From: an uncultured Gammaproteobacteria bacterium
Lineage (GTDB): Bacteria > Patescibacteriota > Patescibacteriia > Magasanikbacterales > UBA922
NCBI GenBank assembly: GCA_964522435.1
Contig: CAZFUL010000004.1
Coordinates: 54,360-118,359, forward strand
Direction of reading: 5' to 3'
Length of the DNA stretch: 64,000 nt
The translations under genes were made by a program, and so were the position numbers. How positions within the stretch are numbered: position 1 is the first letter of the stretch; the number at the start of each line of letters is the position of its first letter. A model generated the notes under the pieces. The model ran no database searches. It was given only the letters and a program-made list of their open reading frames with translations, and was not told the origin of the DNA. This document shows, one piece after another, positions 21,759-58,863 of this stretch.

Positions 21759-21841
21759 GCTCAGGTGGCGGAATGGTATACGCGCATGCTTGAGGTGCAT
21801 GTGGGAGTAATCCCGTGGAGGTTCAAGTCCTCTCCTGAGCA
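21759..21841 (+). tRNA. tRNA-Leu (anticodon GAG), type II with a long variable arm; no encoded CCA
   Basis: Acceptor GCTCAGG/CCTGAGC. Anticodon stem CATGC/GCATG with loop TTGAGGT (U33, GAG, G37). 15-nt variable arm TGGGAGTAATCCCGT. T-arm GGAGG-TTCAAGT-CCTCT. Discriminator A. Confidence 0.85.
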
Positions 21842-21850
21842 CAACGAAAA

Positions 21851-39105: not shown

Positions 39106-39122
39106 TATTATCTAGCTACTTT

Positions 39123-42100: not shown

Positions 42101-45100
42101 TGCTGCAGAAAATAGTTGTACCCGTTGTGTGGGTGGTGGTGAATATCGTAATGGTGCTTGTATTTATTGGACTATTTCTGATACAACAACACAGTCACAA
42201 TCTTGTCCTGCACAAGCAAATGAATGTCGCGCGTATGCAGGAAACAATGCAGGAAATAGGGTAAATATTTTATCGCAACTTTTTGAACCAAGTAGTGAAG
42301 ATGCCAATGCCTTAGTGCAAGCCCAAGATGGATGGGAAGGATTAGTGGGCTCTGTGGTACGGGTTGTTTCTGATGCTAGTGATGTAGGGCTGCATTCATT
42401 ATTGTTAGAACAGGGCCGAGCGCGTATGCCATTATCTCCAACGAGCACGCCAGGACTGGTAAGTAATCAACGCTATGAAATAACGTTTTGGGCGCGCGGA
42501 GATGCGGGAACCATTCGTTTAGACGTCGTACAAAATAATAATCGACTTGCTACCTTTGCAGAGCAGGTGAGTATTGGAAATTCTTGGAATCGCTATCGTG
42601 TGGGACCTATTGATATTGGCACTATTGCCTCTGATCAACCGCTGTATTTGGTTATTACACCAAATGATGGAAACAACCGAGTATTTTTAGATACCTTTGT
42701 CTTTACTCGTATTCAAGATGTTGTGTACCTTACCAAGGATTCTTGGAAAACACCCGAAGGCTACAATGCGCCACTGTTGTGTGATGCGGTTCCCCAAGAT
42801 ACGCTTCCTGGCGAAGCATTGGGTTGTCGTTCGTATCAAGAAGTAAACGCAAAAGGGGTAAGCCGGTATGCAACTGGTTTTGAACGACTCTGTCGTGAAA
42901 AAGCGGTTGGTTGTATGCCCGTATGGGACACCTACAATACGGTAAGTGGGGAATCACCAGAGTTACCTCATGTGTATAATGTGTGGTGTGCGGGTAACGA
43001 AGGCGCAAATTGTGAAATTCGGGTAAATAATATTTTGCTTGGCGCTTGTGTTGTTGAACGTGGTTCAGTAAATAACGACGGGCAAAGTGGTTGTTATATT
43101 CGAGATAATGATAGTTTGGATATTGCCTTACCTCAAGGCATCACGATTGCGAATTTGCCTGCGGGATCTGTAAGTGATTCAACGGTGTACATTCCTGCGG
43201 ATACGCCAAGCTCAACACCCCTCTTTTTAGCGAATACAGAAAAACATCGTTGTCAGGAGTCTCAATTAGGTTGTGAACTAACCGGCGCAGAGCAACAATT
43301 ATTACCAGATCCAACGGTTGCTGTTTCTTATGAACACCAAGAAACACGAATAAAAAATGATCCTGCTTCATATAATGAGGTACTATGTAACGATACCTTA
43401 ATTGGTTGTGGAGAATTTGACCATGCGGGAGCACGCTCATTTTTTAGAGATCCCCGCTTTACTGGGAATGCTCTTTGTTCGTATCGAGAACAAAGCGACG
43501 ATGGACAAAATTATGGTTGGTATATTAATGACCAAAGTGTTGGTCGCTGTAGTCAGAGCGATACGCTTTGTCGTGAAGATGGAGACTGTTCTGGCGCAAA
43601 CGATCTTTGTGTGAGTAAGGGCAATGTTGCTTGTTATGACGATTTTGTTCAACGTGGTGGAGAATTTGGATTACGCAGTAATGGCTCTCCCGAGTACGCA
43701 GGCTTTGTTGGTACTTGCCCTGCGCAGTTTAACGAATGTACCCAATTGGTTGATCCAGAAGATACCTCAAATATTAATCCCAAAGGCCAACCGTACTATG
43801 TGGTATTTAACGATAAAATCACCAACAGATTAGGACAATGTAATACCGTCAGTCTAGAAGAGGGCTGTGTGTTATTTGATAAAACCGATGATCCAAATAA
43901 ATTGTATAATGCCTCAGCAACCTACGCATTGAGTACAACACAAGATCCTCCGTATGGCCCTGTTGCGCCAGTAACCACCGCAAGTAATAATGACCCAAGT
44001 AGTATTAATACGAACTTGTTATTAAAGGTAGATAGAGATAGAGCATGTAGTGAGTGGTTAGATTGTAAAAACTATGTTCCGGTTACTAATGCACAAGGAC
44101 AGCAAGAATTTTTGTGTTCACAGTATAAAGCCTGTGAAAAATTGAGCCCAGATGGTCGCTGTATTGGCTGGGTAGATGATTTAGCGACTCCAGAAGATAG
44201 AACACGAGCCACAGATCGCTTGACCTATGAACAATATATACAACGAGGCACGTCTTGGTATGCGGAAGAATTTAGTGGATATTCGTTATACGACAAATAT
44301 CAAATTACCAATTTAGCCCAACTTGCATTTAATTTTGAAGAATTAAACGACGACGTTGCTGCCGCGCTTGTGCCAGTAACAAATGAAACATTTATTGCTC
44401 GTGTGCTCGATGATCGGTTATTCCGTTATAACAATGCGGAAGATTTGGACTGTATTGATGAAACCGTGACCTCAACAGATTGGCTCTCCTGTGGATTTGA
44501 CAATCAAGGGTTATGTTATAGAAAAAAATGTGTGTATCCAATAGATGGTGGCTTTGGTTTGGATGAGGTTGATACCACAAATGTGGCAGATATTCAGCGA
44601 TCACTCAACTTGCTTGAAGCAAACTCATGTAAAGGTTTCCCTGAAGAAGAAAGTCCTTTTTCTCAACGGATTATTCCTCCAGGAGGCATTCTTGATAGAG
44701 TATCTCAGTATGGCCTGAGAAAAGAGTTTGTCAAATACAATCAGGGATATGCGAATATTAATGTTTGCCAAAGTGGTGAATGTTCTTGTGAGTATCAAAA
44801 GGTATCATACAATCATGGCGTTGTTGATTATATTTCGTTTAATGACGCTGCGCAATCAACAATTGTTGGAATTTGTTCCGGAGGAGACGCGACTACTGCG
44901 GGATTACCCTGTACTCGTGATAGTGAATGTATTGGGCGAGGGGCAGCGAATCAGGGTGATGTTGCTCAAACAGGGACCTGTAATTTAGTGCGCGAAACAC
45001 AAAGTGTCTTTGGCTTACGTGGCTTTTGTTTAGAGCGAGACCTTTCTCGTCCATCTCCAGTGGACCCAAGTGGTTATGAATGTCTTACCTGGTTACCAGT

Positions 45101-48100
45101 ACAAACCTCTGTTGGTCGTGCTGATATCTTTAACAGTTCATTAAGTGCGGGATATAACCCGACTCTTGATGCAGAATCTGGATTTGGAAAATTATATTGT
45201 AGTAATGGAAGTACCTACGAACGAGTAAATGCACAAGATAATGAACGTATTGTGGATGCGTTACGAGATATTGCAGGGAATGTGGCAAATAGTGAAACCA
45301 TATTTCCTCCACATAATATCACCACCTGTCAGGTAGACGCAGATGGACAATTTGGTGGCGCTGAACCGCCAACAGCATTTCATAGTTGGAATTGTGGCGC
45401 GGATGATGATAATGGTATGCCTGTATCATTTTTAACCTCTTGGGCGAGAAAATATTTGGATGTTTCTGCACAAGTGTTGCGTATTGAAACACCAATTACC
45501 ACACCAGAAGATGGAAAATTCTATAATGTGCATGGAAATATTCCTAACTATAATCCCTTAAATGGCGGAAATGCTGGTGGTGGTTGTGGTTCCGGAGATG
45601 ACAACGGCAGTCCTGCCTGTACGATTCATAGTTTTGGACCCGTGAGCATTAACAATGTTCTTGATTACGGAACTATTATGCATCCCCCACGCTATTGGGA
45701 TACGCCCCGAGACAGTTTGCTGCAGTGTAGTGGACAAATGTGTATTGATACGACAGCAGCCTGTGATGATAAAAATAATCCAGATTGTTGGATTCGTTGT
45801 GGGAATGAAGTATTACAACCAGGATATAATGGCCCGTTAGAAGAGGTGGGTCCTCGTACTATTCCAGAATGTGGCTACTCATATAAATCATTCTATTACA
45901 CTACCGGAAGCGGTGTTACTGTGGCGTCTCATCCCTTATCACCAGAATTTGCCATGTACCAAAGTAACCGTCCTGCAAATGATCCAGAACTCGATGATTA
46001 TGTGACTGATGCGCGAGGAAATAGTATTTTGAATCGCCAAGACATAGAAAGCGTGATAACAGAAAAAGAATTAAATCGCGTGTATTTCTTGATTACCGGG
46101 TTTCCCCATAATGCAGATGGTCGATTTCCTACGATTATGAGTGATCGGGTGTACCTTGACTTTTTGAAACTACAAGAACAAGGGCATGATATTCGGCCAA
46201 AATCTGTTCCTGTTGCGGATGGGCGAGAACAATATTTTCCATTGCTCAACAATGATTTTGTGGATGGATCTGTTTACAGTTATTTGTTAACCACGGAAAA
46301 CGGCGGTACCTTTACCTATGATGATTATGATGATTTAAATCAATTAAATGGTCATTTAGTTTCGTTAAAAGATCTTGAGCGTAATCGTATACACCATCGC
46401 TATGTCATGATCTATCATAAAGATGCGAATGAAGAGTTAGAAGGAAATTTGGGAGATGCGGGACGCATTCCGGATGTATTTAATGAGCGCAATACCGTAT
46501 GTGCAGAACGAAGTAGTAATTGGTTTGCCATTGGGATGGACTTTAATGAAGATGGTGAATTCTTGGGCTATATTACCCGGTTCTGTAATGGATTTGCGGC
46601 AAGAGTCGATGACGGAAATGGTATTCAATTTGCGGTGGTAGCAACTAAAAATGTGCAATGTCTAGAAATACAAGAAGTACATCGCTCCAGTGGGGTTAAT
46701 CCCTTACAAGATAGTACCAACAAAGCCTGGACAAATCGCTTGTGGGTCGGTGCCTTACAAACCCATCCAAGCAACAATTATCGTGGCATTGGAGCTGGGG
46801 TTCCGTTAAAAGAACAACAAGCAACGCCTTTTGGGTCATTAGCCATTCCATCAGCGGCGTTAGTTGAGGGACAATTATTTCCATTGAAAAATTATTACTT
46901 TGTTGATCCGGCAACTGATGGTATTCCTTATAGTTGTGGAAATGGAAATAGTGATGTGGATTGTTATTTACTGCGTAATGGAAATGAAAAACGCTTTAGT
47001 ACCTATCAATATCCACAAAACGTGGTGAGTATTCTTGATGGAAAAGGAGCAGCAGATGGTATTGCCGCAATTAACCAATTGTTTGCAAAATCATTTACCA
47101 TTTCTCGCTTACTAGAAGGACGGTTACGAACCGTTGCTGTTGGTACGGATATTTCGTATCAAGAAGGAATTGATGGGGGACGATTATTACCACAAGTATA
47201 TTCATTAAATCCGGTAACCTGTGCGCTCGGTCGTGATCATTGTACGCCGGCAGAAGCCAATGCCTTTTCATTAGGCAGACGAAATGGGGTGGCGAATGCG
47301 GATTATGATAATAATGGCATTCCAGACGAAGATAGTGATGGAGATGGACAAGCGGATGCGCTCATTGAAACCTCTGGCAGTTATGTTGCGCAATTACGCT
47401 TCTTCGCCTTTGCAGATGATAATCGCATGCCGCTTCGTCGTATTATGATTGATTGGGGTGATGGAGAAGATATTACCAATGAAAGTATCAAAGGCTTATA
47501 TAAAAATAGAAAACCGGTGTGTGAGGTAAGTAATGATCCAGGCAAGAGTACCGTGGGATTATGTTTAACTGCAAATAATCGTCCAACCGGCATGACTTGT
47601 AGTGATACGCAAGCCTGTATTGTTGGTCAACGCTGTGCTTTACCGGATGAACTCGATCGTTTGGTAGCAGCAGGTACCTTATCTGCGGAGTATGGCAGTA
47701 AACGTTTTGGTAATTTAGAACGCAGTTGTGAACAGGGCAACTTTGATTATTATCACGAATATGTGTGTCAACAAAGTGATATTGAGGCACATGTCGCGTC
47801 TGTCTCTGCTGGTGGCATTGGCTTACCCTATGTCCGACAAGTGGGTGGGTTAGAGGATCAAGAACGCTTAAATGCCTTAGGCTTTACCAATCAAGACTAT
47901 GTTTGTGTGTTTCAACCCAAACTGCAAGTCATGGATAACTGGGGTTGGTGTACAGGCAGCTGTGTGCGGGATTATGATCGTAATGGAAATGAAATAGGTG
48001 CTCCTCAGGTAGGGTGTTATGAAAATTTTAGAGACCCCGAGGCTGCTATAATATTTCAATGTTCATCTGATAATGTGGGTGGTCGTGATAATCCTTGGAT

Positions 48101-48155
48101 ATTATATAAAAATGAAATTATTGTTGCTCCGGCTCTTGAACCAGAAAGAGACTAA
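39123..48155 (+). CDS. Giant (about 3010 aa) cysteine-rich secreted protein, unknown function
   Basis: Uninterrupted 9-kb frame. N-terminal signal MRKLFPVALVCLFIIMQLFGVFLFAQPAKA. Very high Cys content with no low-complexity repeats. An internal beta-sandwich/CBM-like stretch (EITFWARGDAGTIRLDVVQNNNRLATFAEQVSIGNSWNRYRVGPIDIG...LYLVITPNDGNNRVFLDTFVF). A C-terminal acidic Ca-loop-like run (NNGIPDEDSDGDGQAD). The ATG at 39123 is preferred over the TTG at 39102. Confidence 0.85.
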   Translation: MRKLFPVALVCLFIIMQLFGVFLFAQPAKAVFGAGDISFDPQAWIQREKHYAGDKVEATVTESVLSAVMGSLLHATSYFTRKLAYDAALYVAYGGKGQGSLAYKEGAAAYFEKVSKDTAADAIGELGKPFGLNLCQIPDLRLNIFLQVGLSNRFAVEPTPNCRWQDLKEGGIFDGAAWVQRYGTEEGLAETFSATLSVDNTDFGIALGAIGQISDLQAGAEAAARQDRTEGQGFKPLTSLISGDIKTPAQIVREETNALTAKHQGELSAGQIAGIYGSGLKQVPAMAASVFLNSLTATLLNRLLTEGLFPEGSDAPGFQSGVFSYTSSPFTQNSRARNAFSFLLTIRPEQLTNFNIVAEFAACPEHPGLNNCVIDSDLQQALVQAKSGTPMTIQEAIDIGYLNKDWPLISPRNNQHTIENCQVGRYCYSNIQKMRKVRILPLGFEIAALRSDPDNPWTLGQVVQGFEKCRRDDPNNPDAITPDPAFPFCHLINPNWTIAVPSTRCELNTYGPQLHAEDSPSRRRECMDISTCLAKGPNGECIDHGYCTKEKNVWDLNADTCPAYYNSCDTYTNTEDRFIASYLTRSLDFGQCTADTVGCRAFSLEQIAEDNWESSAADRRLAYVAQGRNERIHFTDAITAISSVCSAASDGCRAFIPAARYINGLFVQNEQGAYQQQEDTSTLLHLKRAPDYLGCYDTNRAANSPEINWPTTVQEAQNVVAQDARCDAYASVCVEEEVGCSAYQPTEGGVEIPGVIGAQNVCDASCVGYDTFKQLGYADVGQGFEDPVFPLYFIPRIAEEQMAAQGTICSAEFVGCDEFTNLDTVANGGEGLEYYTSLTHCEQPSADGANSRVYYSWEGSVREGFLLQTHRVKPIDERDLSYIQDTLEIDVDFNYSLGSPMYANDSRDALASASARCNEQTYNLKINNPGDLNSAPDNCHALYDTDGNVFYRLVGELVVVSDACHALRKTEPEIYADTTLEQRSCSADRGEWNAAENSCTRCVGGGEYRNGACIYWTISDTTTQSQSCPAQANECRAYAGNNAGNRVNILSQLFEPSSEDANALVQAQDGWEGLVGSVVRVVSDASDVGLHSLLLEQGRARMPLSPTSTPGLVSNQRYEITFWARGDAGTIRLDVVQNNNRLATFAEQVSIGNSWNRYRVGPIDIGTIASDQPLYLVITPNDGNNRVFLDTFVFTRIQDVVYLTKDSWKTPEGYNAPLLCDAVPQDTLPGEALGCRSYQEVNAKGVSRYATGFERLCREKAVGCMPVWDTYNTVSGESPELPHVYNVWCAGNEGANCEIRVNNILLGACVVERGSVNNDGQSGCYIRDNDSLDIALPQGITIANLPAGSVSDSTVYIPADTPSSTPLFLANTEKHRCQESQLGCELTGAEQQLLPDPTVAVSYEHQETRIKNDPASYNEVLCNDTLIGCGEFDHAGARSFFRDPRFTGNALCSYREQSDDGQNYGWYINDQSVGRCSQSDTLCREDGDCSGANDLCVSKGNVACYDDFVQRGGEFGLRSNGSPEYAGFVGTCPAQFNECTQLVDPEDTSNINPKGQPYYVVFNDKITNRLGQCNTVSLEEGCVLFDKTDDPNKLYNASATYALSTTQDPPYGPVAPVTTASNNDPSSINTNLLLKVDRDRACSEWLDCKNYVPVTNAQGQQEFLCSQYKACEKLSPDGRCIGWVDDLATPEDRTRATDRLTYEQYIQRGTSWYAEEFSGYSLYDKYQITNLAQLAFNFEELNDDVAAALVPVTNETFIARVLDDRLFRYNNAEDLDCIDETVTSTDWLSCGFDNQGLCYRKKCVYPIDGGFGLDEVDTTNVADIQRSLNLLEANSCKGFPEEESPFSQRIIPPGGILDRVSQYGLRKEFVKYNQGYANINVCQSGECSCEYQKVSYNHGVVDYISFNDAAQSTIVGICSGGDATTAGLPCTRDSECIGRGAANQGDVAQTGTCNLVRETQSVFGLRGFCLERDLSRPSPVDPSGYECLTWLPVQTSVGRADIFNSSLSAGYNPTLDAESGFGKLYCSNGSTYERVNAQDNERIVDALRDIAGNVANSETIFPPHNITTCQVDADGQFGGAEPPTAFHSWNCGADDDNGMPVSFLTSWARKYLDVSAQVLRIETPITTPEDGKFYNVHGNIPNYNPLNGGNAGGGCGSGDDNGSPACTIHSFGPVSINNVLDYGTIMHPPRYWDTPRDSLLQCSGQMCIDTTAACDDKNNPDCWIRCGNEVLQPGYNGPLEEVGPRTIPECGYSYKSFYYTTGSGVTVASHPLSPEFAMYQSNRPANDPELDDYVTDARGNSILNRQDIESVITEKELNRVYFLITGFPHNADGRFPTIMSDRVYLDFLKLQEQGHDIRPKSVPVADGREQYFPLLNNDFVDGSVYSYLLTTENGGTFTYDDYDDLNQLNGHLVSLKDLERNRIHHRYVMIYHKDANEELEGNLGDAGRIPDVFNERNTVCAERSSNWFAIGMDFNEDGEFLGYITRFCNGFAARVDDGNGIQFAVVATKNVQCLEIQEVHRSSGVNPLQDSTNKAWTNRLWVGALQTHPSNNYRGIGAGVPLKEQQATPFGSLAIPSAALVEGQLFPLKNYYFVDPATDGIPYSCGNGNSDVDCYLLRNGNEKRFSTYQYPQNVVSILDGKGAADGIAAINQLFAKSFTISRLLEGRLRTVAVGTDISYQEGIDGGRLLPQVYSLNPVTCALGRDHCTPAEANAFSLGRRNGVANADYDNNGIPDEDSDGDGQADALIETSGSYVAQLRFFAFADDNRMPLRRIMIDWGDGEDITNESIKGLYKNRKPVCEVSNDPGKSTVGLCLTANNRPTGMTCSDTQACIVGQRCALPDELDRLVAAGTLSAEYGSKRFGNLERSCEQGNFDYYHEYVCQQSDIEAHVASVSAGGIGLPYVRQVGGLEDQERLNALGFTNQDYVCVFQPKLQVMDNWGWCTGSCVRDYDRNGNEIGAPQVGCYENFRDPEAAIIFQCSSDNVGGRDNPWILYKNEIIVAPALEPERD

Positions 48156-48160
48156 CAAAA

Positions 48161-48191
48161 TAAAAAATCCCGATTCAATCGGGATTTTTTA
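48161..48191. terminator. Bidirectional intrinsic terminator after the giant gene
   Basis: aaaaaaTCCCGAttcaaTCGGGAtttttt. Confidence 0.8.
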
Positions 48192-48269
48192 TAGGACAGA
48201 ACAGAAAATAGCTTTTCTCCTTTGTCCTTTCTCCCGCCACAGTGTTGTGGCGGGGGTTGCAGAAGAGCA

Positions 48270-49338: not shown

Positions 49339-52293
49339 ATGGCTGAACACATAAAACAATTTACTCGCTTATCATATGCACGCATAGTCCGTCTGTTACC
49401 CAGTCGGCGTTTTCGCTTATTTAGTCTTATTTCTCTTGCACTTATTGTTATTTCTACGGTATTTATTTGGGCAGCACCTTCTTTTGCGCAAAATGTCCCG
49501 GTATCCGGAATTGGTGATGCCATTATTCGCTCATTGGTGTGGCTCATGCTGCAGTTGGCAACCGTGTTTATTCAGCTTACCATATTTTTATTGCGCTTTT
49601 TTATTTTAATTGCGGGGTATAATGATTATATTAATGCCCCGGTCGTATTATTGGGTTGGAACATGTTGCGTGATATTGCAAACATGTTTTTTATTGTGAT
49701 TTTAATGGTGATTGCCTTTGGCACCATGCTTGGTTTAGAACAGTATGAATGGAGAAAGTCATTGGTAAAGTTAGTTATTGCTGCCATTTTAGTCAATTTT
49801 AGTAATTTAATTGTGCAAGTCATGATAGACGTGGCACAAGTATTTACCATTACCTTTTTAAACGCGGTGGCTGGGGCAGCAGGGGGCAACCTGATTCAAA
49901 TGTTTAACTTTGATAAATTATTTGAAATTGTCGTTGGCAGTCCAGAAGATGTGAGTGGAGATTTACTCTTGAATTTGTTTGGGGCGGGCGTTATTTCGTT
50001 AGTGTTTGCGGGCATGGCCATGTTTACCATGCTTGCCTATGTGGTGGTGTTGTTAGCGCGTATGGTGGTGTTGTGGATGGGGATTATTTTGTCTCCCCTC
50101 ATGTTTATGTTTAGCGTATTACCGCAAACAAAAAAATATGCAGATGAATATTGGTCTGAAATAATAAATCATATTATTGCCGCGCCAGTGATGGTGTTCT
50201 TTTTGTGGCTATCGTTTGCTACCTTTGGGGGCAACCAAGGCGCTATTGCCCATATAGAAGATAATAATGCCATTAAAACAGCCCAAGGCAGCGGCTATTT
50301 ATCCAGTGCAGAAACCATAGGCGGCAGTAAACCGGCTATTGCGGGAATTAGTCAAGCGGGTACCCCAGAAAATATGGCTAATTTTGCAGTGGCCTTGGCC
50401 TTTTTATGGTTAGGGGTAGAACGGGTGCAAAAATTGGGCGTCAAAGGCGGCAGCTTACTATCAAAAGCAACCAACTTTGCTGGGAATGTTGCCACCATTG
50501 CGACCGGCTACGCTGCTGGCCGTTGGTTAGTTGGCAAAGGCACTGATGCGAGTATTGGATCACTCAAATATGTTGGGAATAGAATTCCTTTGGTTGGGGG
50601 TGCATCACTTAAAAATTATGGCGCAGCAATTTCGAGTACTTTTCAACGCAAAGGTGCGTTGGGCGTGTTAACTGCCGGAAATTTTTCTGGTATTGGTGGG
50701 GCGCAGAGTAAAATTAGAGCATCTGAACGAGCAAAGAACTGGGAAGAAAATGGCTTCTACAAAGGGACCGGTGGTCGTGCGGTTGGTTGGTTGGCCGCGC
50801 GGGTGTGGGAACCGTCTGAGCGAGCAGAAAAGCGGAGTCAAGATTGGGCTGCGGCGGCTGAACGCGTGAAAAAAATCCAAGAAGAATCATACTCAACCAG
50901 TGGCAGTCGTGCGGGGCAAGCAAAATTAGATGCCACTGTTGAGTTGAAAAAAGTAGAAGAAAAAGCAGCAGCAAAAGGAGCGCAAAAAATAACAGAGCGG
51001 CTAAAAGAAGCACGAGAAATTAAAGAAATTTATGACAAGTTAAAAGATCAAAATAATCGTCTTCCTGCGGACACACAACGCTCTGAAAAAGAATTACGTG
51101 AGCAAACACAAGAAGCGTATTTAGAAAAAGTAGCGCGCGAAAAAGGAGCTTCTACCAAAGAAAAAACACAACGCTTATTAGAACGTGATGGAGGGGTCGC
51201 AAGTCGTTTAGAGTTAGCAAATAAAGTCGCGACTGAAATTAAATCGACGGTGGGCTCAAAAGCGGCAAGTGAAGAAGGGGATATGAAAGAGCGTCATTTT
51301 ATTGAAGAAGAACAAGCAAGAGCGCGAGATAAAATTCGTGCAGGACTAAATTTACCAGAAATTCATTTGCCTGCTTTCCGAGATAGATATCAAAAAGAAA
51401 TTGAAGAATCCATGTCTGGGTTAAATTTTCGTGAAATTACGCGTCAAGCAGGTAATTTTATGGCACAAGGGTTACGTTCTCCAGAAATTGCTCGTGCGGC
51501 GGCAGCAACGCTGTCTGTGGCAATGAAACGTGGCTCAGAAACCGGGATGGCTGCCTTTAATGAAATGTTAATAGGCTTAGGCTTTGATGATAATGCCGCA
51601 CAAAATGTTGCCGCAGATGATATGCAAGGAAAACAACGTTTGTTGTTATCTGCATTATTGGGTGAGCGAGTAACTGAAACAGATAATCTTGATCAAAAAA
51701 TGGCAGAATTTGAACAAAAAGTAGGTGGGCCAGAAGCTGCCCAAACTATTTTAAAAAATTTGGATAGTAACCTTAAAGTCGCGGCAGCTGATGGTGCGGT
51801 AAATATGGCTGGGTTGTTTGATGACCGAACCGTCGATGCAAATGGTAAATTAAAAATAAAATTAGAAACAGACACTGCGAAATTTAAAGGAAATCGTATG
51901 TATGCCGCTAATGTAAATAATATTACCAAAGCGACTGGAGTAGAGGATATGATTGGTGAAAAAGGTACCTTACAAAAAACAAAACGTGATGCGCAAGGAA
52001 GAAAAATCTTAGATAGTGCCGGTAACGCGATTATGGAAGACGATATTCAAGCACAAGAACAATTGGCAACATTCTTAAATTCTGCGAAGCAAAATACACG
52101 GTTTAGCTCATTTTTTGTGGAATCAATTGTGAGATTAAATCAAAATGATCAAGCCGGCTTACGAAAAGTATTAGATAAACTGAATCAAGAAGCGAGAGCT
52201 GCAATAGAAAAATTATTAACCGCTCCATCCCCCACAGGTTCCGCTGCAGCTGGAGGTGCACCAATTGGACCTGGTCCTGGTGCCGGACCATAA
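49339..52293 (+). CDS. VirB6/TrbL-like polytopic membrane protein with a long charged coiled-coil C-terminal extension
   Basis: At least 6 TM helices in the first 350 aa, in a TrbL/VirB6-like arrangement. They are followed by about 600 aa of K/E/A-rich predicted coiled coil and a Gly/Pro/Ala tail (GSAAAGGAPIGPGPGAGP). Lies in the VirB4 operon. Confidence 0.45.
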   Translation: MAEHIKQFTRLSYARIVRLLPSRRFRLFSLISLALIVISTVFIWAAPSFAQNVPVSGIGDAIIRSLVWLMLQLATVFIQLTIFLLRFFILIAGYNDYINAPVVLLGWNMLRDIANMFFIVILMVIAFGTMLGLEQYEWRKSLVKLVIAAILVNFSNLIVQVMIDVAQVFTITFLNAVAGAAGGNLIQMFNFDKLFEIVVGSPEDVSGDLLLNLFGAGVISLVFAGMAMFTMLAYVVVLLARMVVLWMGIILSPLMFMFSVLPQTKKYADEYWSEIINHIIAAPVMVFFLWLSFATFGGNQGAIAHIEDNNAIKTAQGSGYLSSAETIGGSKPAIAGISQAGTPENMANFAVALAFLWLGVERVQKLGVKGGSLLSKATNFAGNVATIATGYAAGRWLVGKGTDASIGSLKYVGNRIPLVGGASLKNYGAAISSTFQRKGALGVLTAGNFSGIGGAQSKIRASERAKNWEENGFYKGTGGRAVGWLAARVWEPSERAEKRSQDWAAAAERVKKIQEESYSTSGSRAGQAKLDATVELKKVEEKAAAKGAQKITERLKEAREIKEIYDKLKDQNNRLPADTQRSEKELREQTQEAYLEKVAREKGASTKEKTQRLLERDGGVASRLELANKVATEIKSTVGSKAASEEGDMKERHFIEEEQARARDKIRAGLNLPEIHLPAFRDRYQKEIEESMSGLNFREITRQAGNFMAQGLRSPEIARAAAATLSVAMKRGSETGMAAFNEMLIGLGFDDNAAQNVAADDMQGKQRLLLSALLGERVTETDNLDQKMAEFEQKVGGPEAAQTILKNLDSNLKVAAADGAVNMAGLFDDRTVDANGKLKIKLETDTAKFKGNRMYAANVNNITKATGVEDMIGEKGTLQKTKRDAQGRKILDSAGNAIMEDDIQAQEQLATFLNSAKQNTRFSSFFVESIVRLNQNDQAGLRKVLDKLNQEARAAIEKLLTAPSPTGSAAAGGAPIGPGPGAGP

Positions 52294-52312
52294 GGATCTA
52301 TCGTAGAGAGAT

Positions 52313-53386
52313 ATGTCTATGACCAAAGAAATTTTTTCTCAAATTCAACCACTCTCTTCTAGTCAGCTGCGTGAAGCCGATGATCTTTTTTTTGAGTTAC
52401 GTGGTTCGATAGAAGAAAGCGAAACACTGTGGCAAGCCCTAGACACAGGAATTGCCTCAATGAATGCTGCAACGCTGTATACCTTTCGTCAGAGTTATTT
52501 GCGTTGGTATACCATACTGAGTTGGGATTTGTTATTGAGTAGAAGTAAAGAGGTTCTCCCAAGAATATGCCAAACAACACTGGTGACTGCGGTAAGAGAA
52601 GATATTCCTGTTTGGAAAAAATTTATTGAGTATTTGCATAGTAATAGTTTGGACGAAGATGATATGCAAGCGGTGTATGCAACTGTTCGCGATCTGTTAC
52701 TTCGGTCTGATCAAATTGTTTGTTATCTTAAAGGTGAAGCAGTTACCTTAGAAACCTATATGGTAACCGTGAGTTCTTTTGAACAACGCGAAGATACCTT
52801 AGGGTTATCGCAATACTATAGTGATGTGCAACATGCCTTAGTACAAGATGCTGAGGTGGTACATATAGAGGTGGATGCAAAGCAGATGATGGCATCTATT
52901 CAGGACTTTTTTCATTTTTTGCAAGGGGTATTGCCAGAAAATATTTTTTATATCGTGGATGCGCATATGTATCCACAAAAATATGATGAATCATTCCGCA
53001 ATGCACAACCCGCTGCTCCTATAACCGATATGGTTGATGATATGTTAGAAACAGCAGCAGCTGTTCCTGATTTATTGGATACCTGGGTAGCCCAAGTGTC
53101 AGCGCATAAAAGCGATATCATCGCCTGGTTGGCGAATGATCAAACACAAGAGCAACTTGTGTATGCCTGCCAATCCCTTAAAAATCCCGTACAAGCACGG
53201 CAACGCCTTGCGGCGACCTTTCAACAGGTATTTCCGGATATTCATGAACAAATGGACATTGCGGGGGCTATTGTCGAACTCGACAGCTTTTTGCAAGAAC
53301 AAGGGATAACAGCAACAAATGACTTTTTGTATTTTGATGATACGGATGCAGGATTTCATTGGCATGAAGAGTATAAAACACCATAA
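52313..53386 (+). CDS. Hypothetical acidic protein (T4SS-like locus)
   Basis: 357-aa ORF, 20 nt after the VirB6-like gene. No recognisable motif. Confidence 0.4.
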   Translation: MSMTKEIFSQIQPLSSSQLREADDLFFELRGSIEESETLWQALDTGIASMNAATLYTFRQSYLRWYTILSWDLLLSRSKEVLPRICQTTLVTAVREDIPVWKKFIEYLHSNSLDEDDMQAVYATVRDLLLRSDQIVCYLKGEAVTLETYMVTVSSFEQREDTLGLSQYYSDVQHALVQDAEVVHIEVDAKQMMASIQDFFHFLQGVLPENIFYIVDAHMYPQKYDESFRNAQPAAPITDMVDDMLETAAAVPDLLDTWVAQVSAHKSDIIAWLANDQTQEQLVYACQSLKNPVQARQRLAATFQQVFPDIHEQMDIAGAIVELDSFLQEQGITATNDFLYFDDTDAGFHWHEEYKTP

Positions 53387-53389
53387 TAT

Positions 53390-54445
53390 ATGCCTCAAGA
53401 CATGCACGCCTCACCTGCAACGATACCGGTAAAAAAAGAAGATGGAACAACGGTGCGGATGACCTTAGAACAATTACGCATATACCAAAAGCAACAAAAA
53501 CAACAATCTGTTGGTTCTTTGGCTTCACCAAGTAATCAAGTAAAAACGAATTCGTTACAATCGATTGCACAGCTAACAGAGCGGCTAAAACAAGGGGCAA
53601 TTGCTCGCCCCGTGCCACCCAAAGCACAAAGTACACCAGCAAAAAAAGAAAGCACATTGACCCTGCACGCAGTACAAAAAAAATTATCTCCTATAGCTAT
53701 TGATGCAGGTCAACAAGTAAACGACGTTGCAACCGCAAAACAAGAAGCGCTGGTATCACAAAAAAGTGCGGTTCCTGCGCTGCGCACCAAATCGATGGCA
53801 TTATCAACCACAACACCAGTACCCAATGCATTTATACAAGAAGCCGTAGCCCATATCTGGGATAAAGACGATCATGTATCGTTGTTAGATGAAACACTGC
53901 ATCAAGATTTTCTCGCACCTGCACAACCGTTGATGACAGCAACCGCTGCAGGAGCAACAGCAAAAGCGGGGGGACAATCCGCAGTTCCTGTACAAACTAG
54001 CTCAGCCCAATTTTCTGATACCACCATGCGACAATCGCTTCATACGCGTACAAGTATTCAAGATGTACAACCAAAAAAAATTGGGGTGGTGCCGCGAACG
54101 CTTGATTCCACGTATGAACAGACAAAAACAACAATGGGCCCGCTTGATGAGTTAGCCCAATTTACCGTGATAGATTTTCGCCGTTTATCAAAAACGCCCA
54201 TGGACGCTGCTGCGCAGATATTGAAAAAATTTGATATACTAAAACAAGAGTCGTACTTATTATATTTAGACGCAAGACAGGCATGGTGGAAAAGTCCGTT
54301 GTATACCCAATATATAGCGCTTATGACGAGCGCGTTACTGCAACTGCAACCAATCACCGAACTCTATGGATCGGCAGGGGATACCGAACAGCTGATGCAG
54401 GAAGAATATGAAGCGATTATTGCCATTAACCGTCGACTCAATTAA
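53390..54445 (+). CDS. Hypothetical Ala/Thr/Gln-rich protein (T4SS-like locus)
   Basis: 351-aa ORF, 4 nt after the previous gene. Low-complexity middle region. Confidence 0.4.
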   Translation: MPQDMHASPATIPVKKEDGTTVRMTLEQLRIYQKQQKQQSVGSLASPSNQVKTNSLQSIAQLTERLKQGAIARPVPPKAQSTPAKKESTLTLHAVQKKLSPIAIDAGQQVNDVATAKQEALVSQKSAVPALRTKSMALSTTTPVPNAFIQEAVAHIWDKDDHVSLLDETLHQDFLAPAQPLMTATAAGATAKAGGQSAVPVQTSSAQFSDTTMRQSLHTRTSIQDVQPKKIGVVPRTLDSTYEQTKTTMGPLDELAQFTVIDFRRLSKTPMDAAAQILKKFDILKQESYLLYLDARQAWWKSPLYTQYIALMTSALLQLQPITELYGSAGDTEQLMQEEYEAIIAINRRLN

Positions 54446-54448
54446 GCT

Positions 54449-54883
54449 ATGCAGCAATTTATTGTTCCACAATTTATTGATGTTGAAGATAAAATTTTTG
54501 GACCAATTACTACCAGACAGTTTTTGATTTTGCTCATAGCGGGAGGCATTATTTATTTATCCTTTGAATTATTTGATTTTGCCTTATTTCTTATTATTGC
54601 TATTTTTTTAGGCGGCTTTTCGTTGGTGTTAGCGTTTATAAAAATTAACGGACAAGCATTTCATTATTTTTTATTAAATATTTTTGAAAGTTTTCATAAA
54701 CCTGCTCGGCGTATGTGGCAAAAATCATATTCCAAAAAAGAATTGGATATGCTCCGAAACGCGGTTGTGGAATTTGTTTCAGAAAAAACAGCGGTGACGC
54801 CGGTGCGTCGTGAGCGTATTCGTGATCTATCTTTGCTGGTAAATACGGGCGGCTATTATCGTCCGGATGATGATATTGTGTAA
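54449..54883 (+). CDS. Small two-TM membrane protein, PrgI/VirB3-like
   Basis: 144 aa. Hydrophobic hairpin (FLILLIAGGIIYLSFELFDFALFLIIAIFLGGFSLVLAFI). Positioned just upstream of VirB4, as VirB3/PrgI are in Gram-positive T4SS. Confidence 0.4.
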   Translation: MQQFIVPQFIDVEDKIFGPITTRQFLILLIAGGIIYLSFELFDFALFLIIAIFLGGFSLVLAFIKINGQAFHYFLLNIFESFHKPARRMWQKSYSKKELDMLRNAVVEFVSEKTAVTPVRRERIRDLSLLVNTGGYYRPDDDIV

Positions 54884-54889
54884 AGCACT

Positions 54890-55576
54890 ATGGCAAAAAA
54901 TCAAGCAAAAAAAACAGCAAATAAAAAAGCGTCAACACAAGCTCATCTTCCGATTGCCGAAGTAAAAGACAGTGTGGTGATTATGAAAGACGGAACACTG
55001 CGGGCAGTTATGATGACCTCGAGTATTAATTTTGCCTTAAAATCAGAAGATGAACAAAATGCCTTAATTTCTTCGTATGTGGGATTTTTAAATGGGCTTG
55101 ATTTTCCTTTACAAATCGTCGTGCAATCACGGCAATTACAAATTCAGCCCTACATTGATAAATTGTTGCAACGAGAACAAACGCAAAAAAATGAATTATT
55201 GCGCATTCAAATTGCCGATTATCGTGCCTTTGTGCAAGAGTTGGTAGATATTGGTCAAATTATGACCAAACGCTTTTATGTTGTGGTTCCCTATGATCCC
55301 TTATCAAATAAAAAGAAAAGTTTTTGGACACGCATGAAAGAAGCCTTAAAACCAACCGTGAGTATTCGATTAAAAGAAAAACGATTTTTAGAACGAAAAG
55401 AAAGTTTGCAAGTGCGGGTGCGTCAGGTAATTCAAGGATTAGAAAGTATGGGGCTGCAAGTAGTCCTCCTTGATACGCAAGCCTTAATTGAATTGTACTA
55501 CAGTAGTTATAATCCCGATATTGCCTTTAATCAACCCATGAGACCGCTCGATGAATTACAAATTGAAGAGTTGTAA
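54890..55576 (+). CDS. VirB4/TraC N-terminal domain, split from the ATPase by an in-frame TAA
   Basis: LPIAEVKDSVVIMKDGTLRAVMMTSSINFALKSEDEQNALISSYVGFLNGLDFPLQIVVQSR resembles VirB4 N-terminal regions. Same frame as 55586-57454, separated only by a TAA plus 9 nt. Confidence 0.5.
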   Translation: MAKNQAKKTANKKASTQAHLPIAEVKDSVVIMKDGTLRAVMMTSSINFALKSEDEQNALISSYVGFLNGLDFPLQIVVQSRQLQIQPYIDKLLQREQTQKNELLRIQIADYRAFVQELVDIGQIMTKRFYVVVPYDPLSNKKKSFWTRMKEALKPTVSIRLKEKRFLERKESLQVRVRQVIQGLESMGLQVVLLDTQALIELYYSSYNPDIAFNQPMRPLDELQIEEL

Positions 55577-55585
55577 TATACCTGT

Positions 55586-57454
55586 ATGGCATTTAAACCG
55601 ATTCAACAACATAATAACGAGCAAAAAAAACAACTCAAAGAGAGTGCTTTGCGTCGTTCAAAACAAGTACAGGAAGATGTAATTTCTCTTGAAGAGGAAC
55701 GGGTGTACCGAGAAGGAACCGTCACTATTCGTGATTTGATTGCTCCCTCTGCGCTGCGTATTGATTCTACCTATCTTCAGTTAGGAGAAATTTATGTACG
55801 CACCTTTTTTGTTGTTACGTATCCACGCTATATTGCGGTTGGCTGGAGCGCACCTATCCTCAATTTGAACATCACCATGGATATTAGCATGTTTTTTTAT
55901 CCGGTAACCTCTGGCATTATTTTAAAACAGCTTAAGAAAAAAGTAGGCGCGATTCAAGCACAAATTAGTTCTGATGTAGAAAAAGGAGCGCCCCGCGACC
56001 CCATGAGAGAAACGGCGTTACGAGATATTGAACAACTGCGCGATGATTTGACCCAAGGGGTGGAACATTTTTTTCAATTTGCCTTTTATGTCACGGTGTA
56101 TGGAAAAAATAAAGACGAATTAGACAAAATGTCTGAAACGGTTGAAAATATTTTTGGTTCTCGTTTGATTTACAGTAAACATGTGTTGTATCAAGCAGAA
56201 CAAGGATTTACGTCTACACTGCCACTCGGACTTGATGAACTCATGATTCAGTTTAACATGAATTCGTCTCCTATTGCCTCGTCATTTCCTTTTATTTCTT
56301 CTGAGTTAACGAGTGATGATGGTATTTTGTATGGGATTAATCGTCATAACAATAGTCTTATTTTATTTGATCGCTTTTCACTGCAAAATGCGAATATGGT
56401 GGTATTTGCTACTTCTGGTGCAGGAAAGTCCTATGCCGTAAAACTAGAAGTATTGCGTAGTCTTATGATGGGGATTGATGTTATTATTATCGATCCAGAA
56501 AAAGAATATGAACACTTAACAGAAGCGGTCGGTGGAACTTATGTCAACATTTCGCTTTCTTCAGAAAGCATGGTCAATCCATTTGATTTACCCCGTCCAC
56601 TCGCCGGGCAACAAATTGCGACGGAAGATATTATCCGCAGTGCCGTCATCACCATTAAGGGCTTGATTCGTATTATGTTTGGTCAAATGACCACGGAGCA
56701 AGATTCTATTATGGATCGCGCGCTGTTGGAAACCTATGCCAAAAAAGATATTACGAGTAGTGCAGACTTAAGTCGTGTTGAACCCCCAATCATGCAGGAT
56801 TTGCTCGATGTGTTAGAAGGAATGCAAGGCGCAGAAGAATTAGTCGTAAAATTACAAAAATTTACCACAGGAACATTTTCTGGGTTGTTTAATGCGCCCA
56901 CAAACGTCAACATTAATAATCAATTAGTGGTATTTAGTGTTCGTGATTTAGAAGATGAGCTTCGTCCCATGTCTATTTATTCGTTGATTAATTATATTTG
57001 GAACGTGGTGAGAAGTGAAAGAAAAAAACGTTTGCTTATTATTGACGAAGCCTGGTGGCTCATGACCAATGAAGATAGTGCAAAATTTATTTATGCGCTG
57101 GTAAAACGTTGTCGCAAATATTATTTAGGGGTAACGACTATTACCCAAGACGTGAATGACTTTTTAGGCTCGCCCTATGGCCGCGCTATTGTGACCAATT
57201 CTGCATTGCAATTACTACTTAAGCAATCACCTGCCGCAGTTGAGCTGGTACAAAAAACCTTTATGCTCACAGAAGGGGAGCGCTATCTGTTATTAGAAAG
57301 TGCCGTGGGAGAAGGGATTTTCTTTGCCGGATTAAAGCATGCGGCAATTAAAGTGGTTGCGTCCTATACAGAAGATCAGTTGATAACATCAGATCCAAAA
57401 CAATTATTGGATATTGAACGGGCGAAAAAAGAATTTGAACAAGAAATGAAGTAA
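55586..57454 (+). CDS. Type IV secretion/conjugation ATPase, VirB4/TraC/PrgJ family (C-terminal two-thirds)
   Basis: Walker A VVFATSGAGKSYAVK. Walker B LLIIDEAWWLM. VirB4-type middle domain (TYLQLGEIYVRTFFVVTYPRYIAVGWSAPILN). Lacks about 200 N-terminal residues, which the upstream ORF supplies. Confidence 0.9.
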   Translation: MAFKPIQQHNNEQKKQLKESALRRSKQVQEDVISLEEERVYREGTVTIRDLIAPSALRIDSTYLQLGEIYVRTFFVVTYPRYIAVGWSAPILNLNITMDISMFFYPVTSGIILKQLKKKVGAIQAQISSDVEKGAPRDPMRETALRDIEQLRDDLTQGVEHFFQFAFYVTVYGKNKDELDKMSETVENIFGSRLIYSKHVLYQAEQGFTSTLPLGLDELMIQFNMNSSPIASSFPFISSELTSDDGILYGINRHNNSLILFDRFSLQNANMVVFATSGAGKSYAVKLEVLRSLMMGIDVIIIDPEKEYEHLTEAVGGTYVNISLSSESMVNPFDLPRPLAGQQIATEDIIRSAVITIKGLIRIMFGQMTTEQDSIMDRALLETYAKKDITSSADLSRVEPPIMQDLLDVLEGMQGAEELVVKLQKFTTGTFSGLFNAPTNVNINNQLVVFSVRDLEDELRPMSIYSLINYIWNVVRSERKKRLLIIDEAWWLMTNEDSAKFIYALVKRCRKYYLGVTTITQDVNDFLGSPYGRAIVTNSALQLLLKQSPAAVELVQKTFMLTEGERYLLLESAVGEGIFFAGLKHAAIKVVASYTEDQLITSDPKQLLDIERAKKEFEQEMK

Positions 57455-57475
57455 CTATATTTATACTATATATCT

Positions 57476-58054
57476 ATGGAATTTTCAGAAAAAAAACGAG
57501 TGATTATATTTATCTCCGTTATTGTCGGATTACTTGCCGCACTCGTCCTTATTATATTGGTTGTATTGCGGATGCGTGCAAACAGTCCAACAACTACGAT
57601 CGAAAATACCGATACGGTAACAGCTCCGCTCGGTGATACCTTTACTGGAACAGAAGGGTTATTGCCTCCTCCTGTTGAACCGGTTGTACCAGAAGATGCA
57701 CAAGAACGTTATGTAAAACAGGTATCAGAAATTTTTGTAGAACGTTTTCAAACCTATTCTTCTCATAATGATAATAGTCATATTAATGATGTGCTTGGCT
57801 TAGTTACCACACGTATGGCTGCTTGGGTAGAAAGTCAAACAGCTACCCAACAACGAGATTATCAAGGAGTAACAACACAAGTTATTTCTCGTCGTGTTAC
57901 TTCATACACCGCAAATAGCGCTGCAACCGTAACGATTGGTGTACAACAAGTGGTAGAAGATACGACAGGACAAAAAACAGTGTACAAAAATGGACGAGTG
58001 GAATTATTGTTTACTGATGGAGAGTGGAAAGTAGATGGATTATTTTGGGAGTAA
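57476..58054 (+). CDS. Bitopic membrane protein (VirB8/TcpC-sized), hypothetical
   Basis: N-terminal TM segment (VIIFISVIVGLLAALVLIILVVL) then a roughly 150-aa extracytoplasmic domain. Last gene of the T4SS-like operon. Confidence 0.35.
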   Translation: MEFSEKKRVIIFISVIVGLLAALVLIILVVLRMRANSPTTTIENTDTVTAPLGDTFTGTEGLLPPPVEPVVPEDAQERYVKQVSEIFVERFQTYSSHNDNSHINDVLGLVTTRMAAWVESQTATQQRDYQGVTTQVISRRVTSYTANSAATVTIGVQQVVEDTTGQKTVYKNGRVELLFTDGEWKVDGLFWE

Positions 58055-58143: not shown

Positions 58144-58863
58144 ATGAAAAAATATATTCAAAAAGTATATGAGGAAGTATGGGCATACCTATTTCCTCTT
58201 TTTTGTGTCGTTTGTAAGCACGAGGGAGGGTTACTCTGTGGTCGTTGTCAAAAAGACATTGATCTTAACGCTGTGTTTGCTTGTCCGTATTGTCATAAAA
58301 CAACCCGAGCAGGAGAAATCTGTCCTGCTTGTATCTCTCATACGACCGGGCTAAGCCAGGTAGTAAGTTTCACAAAGTATCAAGAACATACTGCCATGGA
58401 TAAGCTCTTGCACGCCTATAAGTATGCGTATCAAGAATCCGTACTTCTTTTATATCGTCAATTATTTACGGATTTTTTTGCGCGCTTTCCTGAACTGTAT
58501 GCAGGTGTAGACTATCTTGTCCCAATTCCATTACATCGGCGTCGTTTTGCAGAACGAGGGTTTAATCAATCGGTGGGAATTGCAAAAGAACTCGGAGCCG
58601 TACGCAATATGCCCATGCATGATATGCTTTGCCGAAAGCGCTATACCAATCAGCAAGCGCTGCTTTCTCAACAAGAAAGACAGGAAAATATGCAGGATGC
58701 TTTTGCACTATTACCAAAAAAAGAAGCGCTTATTTACGGAAAGCGCATCCTCTTGGTTGATGATGTGTATACAACTGGCGCCACGATGCAAAGTGCTGCA
58801 GCAGTACTAAAAAGCGCTGGGGCAAAAGAGGTGTGTGGGTTTACGATACTCAGATCCATTTAG
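58144..58863 (+). CDS. comFC: ComF-family competence protein/phosphoribosyltransferase
   Basis: Double CxxC zinc ribbon (CVVCKHEG...CGRCQ...CPYCHK...CPAC) and the PRTase motif ILLVDDVYTTGATM. Confidence 0.8.
   Translation: MKKYIQKVYEEVWAYLFPLFCVVCKHEGGLLCGRCQKDIDLNAVFACPYCHKTTRAGEICPACISHTTGLSQVVSFTKYQEHTAMDKLLHAYKYAYQESVLLLYRQLFTDFFARFPELYAGVDYLVPIPLHRRRFAERGFNQSVGIAKELGAVRNMPMHDMLCRKRYTNQQALLSQQERQENMQDAFALLPKKEALIYGKRILLVDDVYTTGATMQSAAAVLKSAGAKEVCGFTILRSI

Follow-up and report, generated by a model that had tools for sequence, protein, structure and literature searches.

A TrsD-like gene and a VirB4 ATPase gene separated by an in-frame TAA in a type IV secretion locus of Patescibacteria

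Genes at the locus

The DNA analyzed here (the window) is a stretch of 64,000 nucleotides from contig CAZFUL010000004.1 of the Patescibacteriota assembly GCA_964522435.1. Its forward strand carries two consecutive open reading frames (ORFs), at positions 54890-55576 and 55586-57454, both of which start with ATG in the window sequence; because both start positions equal 2 modulo 3, the ORFs are in one reading frame. The first is a TrsD-like, or "TraC-like" (PF26593), gene of 228 aa, a stand-alone homolog of the N-terminal portion of VirB4, and the second is a VirB4-family ATPase gene of 622 aa, without the extreme N-terminal region of the fused VirB4. The junction consists of the TAA stop codon (55574-55576) and a 9-nt non-coding spacer, tatacctgt (55577-55585), and translation straight through from 54890 to 57454 gives 855 codons with a single stop symbol. 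The initial annotation had described this pair of ORFs in the same frame, parted by TAA and 9 nt, and the sequence, the ORF list and the translation all confirm the description. A scan for promoters and terminators between 48000 and 59000 showed no enrichment over shuffled sequences and no signal at the ORF junction.

The neighboring genes considered here are all on the forward strand. At the head of the operon, a gene at 49339-52293 encodes a 984-aa candidate VirB6-type channel subunit with a weak TrbL/VirB6-like region (Pfam PF04610 TrbL, E 7.8e-4, 19.7 bits, under the cutoff of 25.9); it was detected in 3 of 80 related loci, in a search restricted by flanks of 4 kb. It is followed in the operon by a gene for a 357-aa protein with no Pfam match (52313-53386), which tblastn found in 13/80 related loci, in every case upstream and in the same orientation, and by a gene for a conserved 351-aa protein, likewise with no Pfam match (53390-54445), whose order and strand are kept in 79 of the 80. 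The latter is directly 5' of the gene for a small PrgI-family (VirB3-type) protein (54449-54883; Pfam PF12666, 35.2 bits, cutoff 27), and the PrgI gene is directly upstream of the TrsD-like gene in 80/80 related loci. On the 3' side of the ATPase gene, a conserved 192-aa protein with no Pfam or NCBIfam match (57476-58054) has a downstream counterpart in 56 of the 80 loci, and also in the close relative L083. A ComF-family phosphoribosyltransferase-like protein (58144-58863; TIGR00201 comF, E 6e-30, under the cutoff; Pfam Pribosyltran 40.1 bits with a cutoff of 26.3, DZR_2 25.7 bits, just under 27) is encoded downstream in 57/80. The kept gene order is 351-aa gene, PrgI, TrsD-like, VirB4, 192-aa gene, ComF. 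The locus is flanked by housekeeping genes (for GroEL, a release factor, KsgA, RecQ, tRNA synthetases and RNase P), and no relaxase or coupling protein (T4CP) was found among the scanned window ORFs, a set that leaves out four ORFs between 26764 and 31298. This is the gene content of the MPF-FATA-related chromosomal type IV secretion system (T4SS) cluster of Patescibacteria, with PrgI, TrsD-like and VirB4 clear and VirB6 weak.

The initial annotation had also pointed to the missing Shine-Dalgarno (SD) sequence in front of both ORFs. This is true but uninformative, because the whole window is devoid of SD use: across its 44 likely genes we found no sign of it, the mean energy of the anti-SD duplex 5' of starts being -1.2 kcal/mol compared to -1.8 kcal/mol at random positions, and only 9 of the 44 genes have a 4-nt SD core or better.

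Domain content of the two proteins

Both ORFs are colinear with four full-length VirB4/TraC profiles. In the NCBIfam profile search, the short ORF matched positions 92-233 of 894 in NF045975, and the long ORF matched positions 273-892; the corresponding segments were 4-176 of 792 and 236-724 in TIGR00929, and 11-104 and 172-728 of 752 in NF045971, the CD1110-family VirB4. The last match of the long ORF (347.5 bits, E 1.5e-103) exceeds the cutoff of 325, although the profile is not covered at full length by one polypeptide. The colinearity with full-length VirB4 that the initial annotation had supposed is thus borne out in domain content, the profiles dividing the N-terminal portion and the remainder between the short and the long ORF.

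For the short ORF, the match to NF041427 (TrsD/TraD) covers profile positions 5-158 of 201 with 31.1 bits (E 1.9e-7), far under the curated cutoff of 200, so that the protein falls outside this narrow staphylococcal subfamily and is only remotely related to TrsD proper. Precomputed Pfam annotation places PF26593.2 (TraC-like) on the identical database protein and on all 120 best relatives, and at 228 aa the window protein stands alone, directly upstream of a VirB4-type ATPase without that region. Each of the best 120 relatives in the database is 222-247 aa long, and the best 150 cluster representatives among 1.8 billion proteins span 124-443 aa, none of them VirB4-sized. A phmmer search of the PDB sequences with the short ORF gave no match even at E 10, and therefore a comparison of folds was needed. 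The top 14 Foldseek matches of its AF2 model in the PDB are all TrwK/VirB4; it should be noted that the model is of moderate confidence (pLDDT 64) and that the best Foldseek E-value, 4e-3, is weak.

The long ORF matches P-loop_TraG, AAA_10 and DUF87 in Pfam, and the VirB4 C-terminal domain of PDB 4AG5 with E 5e-44. Regular expressions run on the translation located both nucleotide-binding motifs intact, Walker A (ATSGAGKS, residues 275-282, at 56408-56431 of the forward strand) and Walker B (LLIIDE, residues 483-488, at 57032-57049, same strand). The best 120 relatives of this ATPase in the database are all 600-647 aa long, and the nearest, at 79-85% identity, carry the names Magasanikbacteria or Patescibacteria.

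The junction in related loci

We surveyed 77 related genome loci holding both genes, which together with the window gave 78 junctions; the titles of most of these loci name Magasanikbacteria, other Patescibacteria candidate groups or unclassified metagenome-assembled genomes. In all 77, the TrsD-like protein and VirB4 are encoded by separate genes, and the TrsD-like gene lies between PrgI/VirB3 and VirB4. The stop codon of the first gene is TAA at 46 of the 78 junctions, TAG at 22 and TGA at 10, and the spacers range from 1 to 472 nt. Spacer length modulo 3 divides the junctions into 26, 32 and 20, the 26 being in frame. Adjacent genes are expected to share a frame one third of the time, and the survey value is 26/78; the shared frame in the window is therefore best taken as a coincidence. 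The downstream gene was assigned an ATG start at 77 junctions and a GTG at one, and in most related loci the tblastn alignments of the ATPase reach its first residue, where an ATG is conserved. The 120 best matches of each ORF, the 150 representatives and the 77 loci include no ortholog with an uninterrupted ORF. At 15 of the 78 junctions a single in-frame stop is the sole break between the ORFs, and each of these would trip the same "split VirB4" flag.

The closest relatives (L083, L084 and L085) have amino acid identities of 79-84%. Their TAA is aligned with that of the window, as the initial annotation had proposed to check, with TAG or TGA taking its place in other loci. The spacer is 3 nt in L083 and L084, and 8 nt and out of frame in L085, which indicates that indels not a multiple of three are tolerated here. 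In comparisons with the closest relatives, dN is 0.11-0.15 with saturated dS for both genes. Because dS is saturated in three of the four pairwise comparisons, only one explicit dN/dS can be given, approximately 0.05 for the short gene compared to L085 (dN 0.12, dS 2.65). An alignment of 32 sequences contains 56 invariant columns. Both the TrsD-like and the VirB4 genes are under strong purifying selection.

Viewed locally, one in-frame TAA followed by three sense codons, between halves colinear with VirB4, could be read as a recent nonsense mutation that cut a single VirB4 gene, making the central ATPase a pseudogene and the apparatus dead. The comparative data refute this reading and leave it a negligible probability: there is no fused close relative, all 77 loci with both genes have the stop, and it is aligned in the nearest of them, so that the break is not specific to one lineage and the orthologs are not uninterrupted, the conserved ATG gives the second gene its own start in most loci, and both halves, with intact ATPase motifs, are under strong purifying selection. 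There is also practically no room for a TAA that arose by an error of sequencing or assembly, a proposal for which there is no specific support. The stop sits where every ortholog stops, the nearest relatives, which come from independent samples, have an aligned TAA too, and an accident would need to rebuild the normal gene boundary of the family. The identical proteins in the database are probably from the same assembly and do not count as independent confirmation of the TAA. Programmed readthrough of the TAA, yielding a fused full-length VirB4 beside or instead of the separate products, would draw on the shared frame, on a spacer without a second stop and on the 15/78 orthologous junctions that look alike. 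Nevertheless, we regard it as extremely unlikely. The in-frame fraction is exactly the chance expectation, L085 is out of frame, spacers reach 472 nt, and overlaps occur in Firmicutes; taken together, these facts show that the frame is not under selection. Neither frame nor spacer is conserved, and the downstream ORF has a start of its own in the survey. To our knowledge, TAA is reassigned in no bacterial genetic code, which also speaks against readthrough, as does a class-I release factor gene within the window.

The headline of the initial annotation, in which a lone in-frame TAA cuts VirB4 in two, finds no support in this comparison, as the related loci are all split, with varying frame, spacer and stop. 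Of its four explanations, a genuine two-subunit VirB4 is the correct one, the split being universal in the related loci examined; the other three (a pseudogene made by a nonsense mutation, readthrough of the stop, an error of sequencing) are unsupported in view of a split conserved in every such locus. It had also named the observation that would settle the matter in favor of a stable two-gene arrangement, namely orthologs with a conserved split and a separate ribosome-binding site: the conserved split is there, and the separate site is not, there being no SD use window-wide.

Interpretation and known systems

We conclude that the two ORFs are, with high probability, genuine genes, each translated on its own, and that they belong to the chromosomal type IV secretion locus of monoderm type (MPF-FATA-related) that is typical of Patescibacteria; the organism is a Magasanikbacteria-like member of this group. 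On sequence evidence, both genes are intact, conserved and under purifying selection, and the split is old and occurs widely. The TAA is the ordinary stop of the first gene and the 9 nt a usual short spacer; the first gene encodes a TrsD-like/"TraC-like" protein with homology to the N-terminal part of VirB4, and the second the rest of VirB4, i.e., the remaining N-terminal region and the Walker-type ATPase domain. The two would be translated separately, the second gene probably by termination-reinitiation coupling or by SD-independent initiation, as for most genes of the window. In the R388 inner-membrane complex, the N-terminal domain of VirB4 docks through VirB3. By homology and gene order, the TrsD-like protein would be a detached N-terminal module of VirB4 that may dock the hexameric ATPase at the membrane via the PrgI/VirB3-like protein.

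Alternatively, the genes might be separate and the TrsD-like protein an accessory factor, for instance an assembly chaperone or a regulator, that retains the ancestral fold and is not a VirB4 module. The C-terminal extensions that bring some TrsD-like relatives to 300-443 aa are consistent with such a role, which we nonetheless consider unlikely given the invariable place of the gene between PrgI/VirB3 and VirB4 (77/77 loci, and Firmicute elements as well), an ATPase that is missing precisely the part of the profile contributed by the small protein, and a fold model that matches the N-terminal region of VirB4. It is highly improbable that the division into N-module and ATPase is put to functional use, through differing stoichiometry or timing on the PrgI/VirB3 platform, or that rare readthrough makes a minor fused isoform in the in-frame third of lineages, this one among them; the sequence data contain no pointer to either.

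Under the two-gene reading, this T4SS-like locus has an unbroken central ATPase and deserves annotation as an intact locus, with a TrsD-like protein and VirB4. Two intact, conserved genes also imply that the apparatus should be regarded as functional. The TrsD-like/VirB4 junction warrants no flag as pseudogene, frameshift or candidate for recoding. The value of the result is mainly as a negative: approximately one in five orthologous loci gives the same false alarm, which makes the family a calibration case for scans that look for in-frame stops between colinear halves.

Compared to the fused VirB4 proteins (NF045971 CD1110, TIGR00929 VirB4/CagE, and TrwK of R388, PDB 7O41/8RTB), the two ORFs jointly span the profiles in colinear order, 4AG5 and TrwK are matched by the ATPase domain, and the model of the N-protein matches TrwK chains; the difference is that in the window a break within the N-terminal region leaves two polypeptides, of 228 aa and 622 aa. 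The order PrgI, TrsD-like, VirB4 is also found on Staphylococcus, Pontibacillus and Clostridioides plasmids, and replicons of S. aureus, Pontibacillus and C. difficile share the split, in S. aureus as trsD followed by a DUF87 ATPase. Staphylococcal TrsD/TrsE (TraD/TraE; pGO1/pSK41, the pGO1 subclass of MPF-FATA) resemble the window pair in that a VirB4-N homolog of approximately 220 aa immediately precedes a DUF87 ATPase of approximately 670 aa, with the trsD gene 3' of a gene for a small membrane protein. However, the resemblance is distant (25% identity, E approximately 0.8 in tblastn), and the staphylococcal genes belong to a conjugative system carried on plasmids, whereas the window locus is chromosomal and has no relaxase among the scanned ORFs.

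The closest parallel is the chromosomal T4SS of Patescibacteria. Guglielmini et al. 2014 make no mention of TrsD in their main text. For Patescibacteria, Quinonero-Coronel et al. 2025 (PMC12102498) reported 2,272 homologs of TrsD, with 1,664 of them adjoining virB4, described TrsD as remotely homologous to the N-terminus of VirB4, and noted an association of comF with the T4SS in the class ABY1. A TrsD homolog is listed there as essential in Southlakia epibionticum ML1, the locus of which is cited in the same paper from Wang et al. 2023. The window locus shares with these systems (PMC12102498) a stand-alone TrsD-like gene next to virB4, PrgI/VirB3 upstream, comF nearby, and a setting amid housekeeping genes with no relaxase or coupling protein in the scanned window ORFs. 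It differs from them in nothing substantial, the in-frame 9-nt spacer being a local accident, and the two-gene arrangement of TrsD-like protein and VirB4 is the ordinary one, already published for Patescibacteria.

The VirB4 junction and its two open reading frames

We re-read the junction and found it as the initial annotation had described it. The TrsD-like gene (54890-55576, + strand, 228 aa) begins with ATG at 54890 and ends with TAA at 55574-55576 in a mechanical ORF list; the spacer tatacctgt (55577-55585, +) precedes the VirB4-family ATPase gene (55586-57454, + strand, 622 aa), which begins with ATG at 55586. The two start codons share a phase, and translation straight through the junction meets a single internal stop. 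The ATPase carries a Walker A motif (ATSGAGKS, 56408-56431) and a Walker B motif (LLIIDE, 57032-57049).

The claim that both ORFs are colinear with full-length VirB4 holds for four profiles with ordered, non-overlapping matches. The TrsD-like protein and the ATPase cover, respectively, positions 92-233 and 273-892 of NF045975 (894 positions), 4-176 and 236-724 of TIGR00929 (792 positions), 11-104 and 172-728 of NF045971, the CD1110 family (752 positions; ATPase 347.5 bits versus a cutoff of 325), and 116-181 and 275-352 of Pfam TraC_F_IV (375 positions). The ATPase also matches the sequence of the VirB4 C-terminal domain crystal structure, 4AG5 (E 5e-44), and that of TrwK. The TrsD-like protein matches NF041427 (TrsD/TraD, small conjugative transfer proteins) with E 1.9e-7, over profile positions 5-158 of 201 and far under the cutoff. 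Its AlphaFold2 model is of moderate confidence (mean pLDDT 64, pTM 0.52), and when it is compared with the PDB by Foldseek, the first 14 ranks all go to TrwK/VirB4 chains from the R388 system (probability 0.97-1.00, E 4e-3 to 7e-2, TMq 0.38-0.45, roughly 190 columns aligned); the hits below them are unrelated proteins of low probability. The predicted resemblance to TrwK/VirB4 is supportive but not strong.

Conservation of the two-gene arrangement

A single in-frame TAA in VirB4 can be read as a recent nonsense mutation, a pseudogene, conserved readthrough, a sequencing error or a boundary between two genes. All of the best 120 of 5,791 significant relatives of the TrsD-like protein (65-100% identity) are 222-247 aa long and carry PF26593 ("TraC-like") in precomputed Pfam data; all of the best 120 relatives of the ATPase (78-100% identity) are 600-647 aa long, and the named sources of both sets are Magasanikbacteria or Patescibacteria. 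When 1.84 billion cluster representatives were searched exhaustively with the TrsD-like protein (HMMER), 2,377 matches resulted, and the best 150 (124-443 aa) include no protein of VirB4 length. Longer TrsD-like proteins do occur: the HMMER representatives include some of 300-443 aa, C. difficile BI1 encodes one of 322 aa (L086, 3360-4328), and a Salinigranum plasmid one of 336 aa (L087, 3447-4457). The homologous region is N-terminal in many longer representatives, which thus have an extra C-terminal extension, and nearer the C-terminal end in some.

Scanning one genome per species yielded 80 loci, 77 with both genes, and hence 78 junctions including that of the window. Their titles name Magasanikbacteria, Uhrbacteria, Falkowbacteria, Buchananbacteria, Nomurabacteria, Paceibacter or Parcubacteria; the remaining titles are generic or evidently wrong. 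Many MAG records with this Patescibacteria-type locus (e.g., L001, L006, L009, L013, L014, L016) are titled 'uncultured Gammaproteobacteria bacterium', which looks like systematic mislabelling in submissions. The first gene ends in a stop codon at every junction (TAA 46, TAG 22, TGA 10), and the chosen start of the second gene is ATG in 77 of 78, matching residue 1 of the window's ATPase in most loci. Spacers range from 1 to 472 nt (at most 13 nt in 47, exactly 1 nt in 14), and their lengths modulo 3 are distributed 26, 32 and 20; the 26 in-frame junctions are one-third of the total, as expected if frame is irrelevant. Fifteen junctions have a single in-frame stop between the ORFs and are indistinguishable in look from that of the window. 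The exceptional GTG start, in L051, directly follows tandem heptamers accctaaaccctaaaccctaaa (CCCTAAA repeats, telomere-like) at the 3' end of an 82-nt spacer (about 4664-4745).

In the nearest relatives, L083, L084 and L085, which come from independent sequencing runs, the TAA aligns to that of the window. Identity to the window is 79% (L083, L084) and 84% (L085) for the TrsD-like protein, and 85% (L083) for the ATPase. Spacer length is 3 nt in both L083 and L084, 8 nt in L085 and 9 nt in the window; the genes of L085 are therefore out of frame, and only non-coding sequence tolerates indels whose length is not divisible by three. In both genes dN is 0.11-0.15 and dS is saturated, the only computable pair having dS 2.65 and dN/dS 0.05; 56 columns are invariant in an alignment of 32 TrsD-like proteins.

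Recent nonsense mutation, pseudogene status and conserved readthrough are all excluded by the lengths of relatives, the junction survey, the nearest relatives and selection, which also leave no need to suppose a sequencing error. Disruption of VirB4 or of the apparatus, raised by the initial annotation, is contradicted by the conserved split, the variable frame and the purifying-type dN relative to dS. Both genes are intact and conserved, the ATPase retaining its catalytic motifs; a stable two-gene arrangement with an undisrupted apparatus is virtually certain. The two-subunit reading is supported by the separate genes of the 77 loci, and this arrangement is already described (PMC12102498).

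Operon context and translation initiation

The order conserved in most related loci is a 351-aa gene, a PrgI-family gene (VirB3-type, PF12666), the TrsD-like gene, virB4, a 192-aa gene and ComF. The operon begins with a gene for a 984-aa protein with a weak VirB6/TrbL-like match. The 351-aa gene (53390-54445; 79 of 80 loci) and the conserved 192-aa gene (57476-58054; 56 of 80) are without family assignment. The ComF-family gene (58144-58863, +) follows the VirB4 operon and the 192-aa gene in 57 of 80 loci; comF is common in ABY1-class loci (PMC12102498).

The surroundings are chromosomal housekeeping genes (guanylate kinase, UvrA, S2, EF-Ts, Val/Tyr/Arg-tRNA synthetases, GroEL, release factor, Sua5, KsgA, RecQ, photolyase), and the window ORFs scanned showed neither a relaxase nor a coupling protein. 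Short overlapping mechanical ORFs cluster at 21.9-23.1 kb because RNase P RNA (bacterial class A, 22592-22991, - strand, 155 bits, a 400-nt match to a 367-position model) and tRNA-Leu(GAG) (21759-21842, +) lie there. Pfam yields no match for a giant ORF just upstream of the T4SS operon (39102-48155, +; 3,017 aa, listed with a TTG start). A gene for a 235-aa protein carrying a bacterial TSP3 repeat (38398-39105) precedes this ORF, and a strong hairpin (48160-48192) follows it. Its product may act as a surface or adhesin-like partner of the T4SS; the ORF was not detected in the 4-kb flanks of related loci. A 462-aa protein encoded some 50 kb away from the VirB4 locus (4269-5657, -) has a T4SS_pilin domain (PF18895, 31.7 bits, over the cutoff), and its gene adjoins one for a DsbA/thioredoxin-like protein (5664-6431, -). 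Patescibacteria are reported to have a VirB2-like pilin component, and the 462-aa protein may be this component, with its gene at a distance from virB4.

As first noted, both ORFs lack a convincing Shine-Dalgarno sequence, but this is a trait of the whole window. Across 44 likely gene starts, no Shine-Dalgarno usage was detectable by anti-SD duplex energy (best duplex at -20 to -3, mean -1.2 kcal/mol versus -1.8 ± 2.6 at random positions), and a 4-nt core occurs in only nine; initiation in the window must be largely SD-independent. Consecutive operon genes from 52293 to 57476 are 3 to 21 nt apart, and many gene pairs in the window are separated by at most 10 nt. This tight spacing and the modal 1-nt spacer among relatives suggest translational coupling; SD-independent or coupled initiation is suggested genome-wide.

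A possible role of the TrsD-like protein and known systems

The N-terminal module that is present in cis in fused VirB4 proteins would here be supplied in trans by the TrsD-like protein, which would tie the ATPase to the membrane protein of PrgI/VirB3 type whose gene lies immediately upstream. This link is drawn by analogy with the R388 inner-membrane complex (7O41/8RTB), in which the VirB4 N-domain contacts VirB3. We consider such a detached module somewhat more likely than not. The principal biological alternative is that TrsD-like proteins serve some other function, as accessory factors. TrsD is without assigned function (PMC12102498), and Wang et al. 2023, as cited in the same paper, list the TrsD homolog of Ca. 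Southlakia epibionticum ML1 as essential.

Quinonero-Coronel et al. 2025 describe TrsD as a remote homolog of the VirB4 N-terminus and reported 2,272 TrsD homologs in 2,221 assemblies of Patescibacteria, with an association with virB4 in 1,664 cases; elsewhere, TrsD occurs in the pGO1 subclass of MPF-FATA (PMC12102498). Our tblastn search of plasmids with the TrsD-like protein matched 116 records, mainly from Bacillus, Clostridium and Staphylococcus, plus haloarchaea. In S. aureus, 16 nt separate an annotated trsD (223 aa) from the downstream gene for a 670-aa DUF87 ATPase; in Pontibacillus, the gene for a 274-aa protein extends past the start of that for a 621-aa "VirB4-like conjugal transfer ATPase, CD1110 family"; and C. 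difficile BI1 encodes, in this order, a PrgI family protein, a 322-aa protein and a 640-aa ATP-binding protein.
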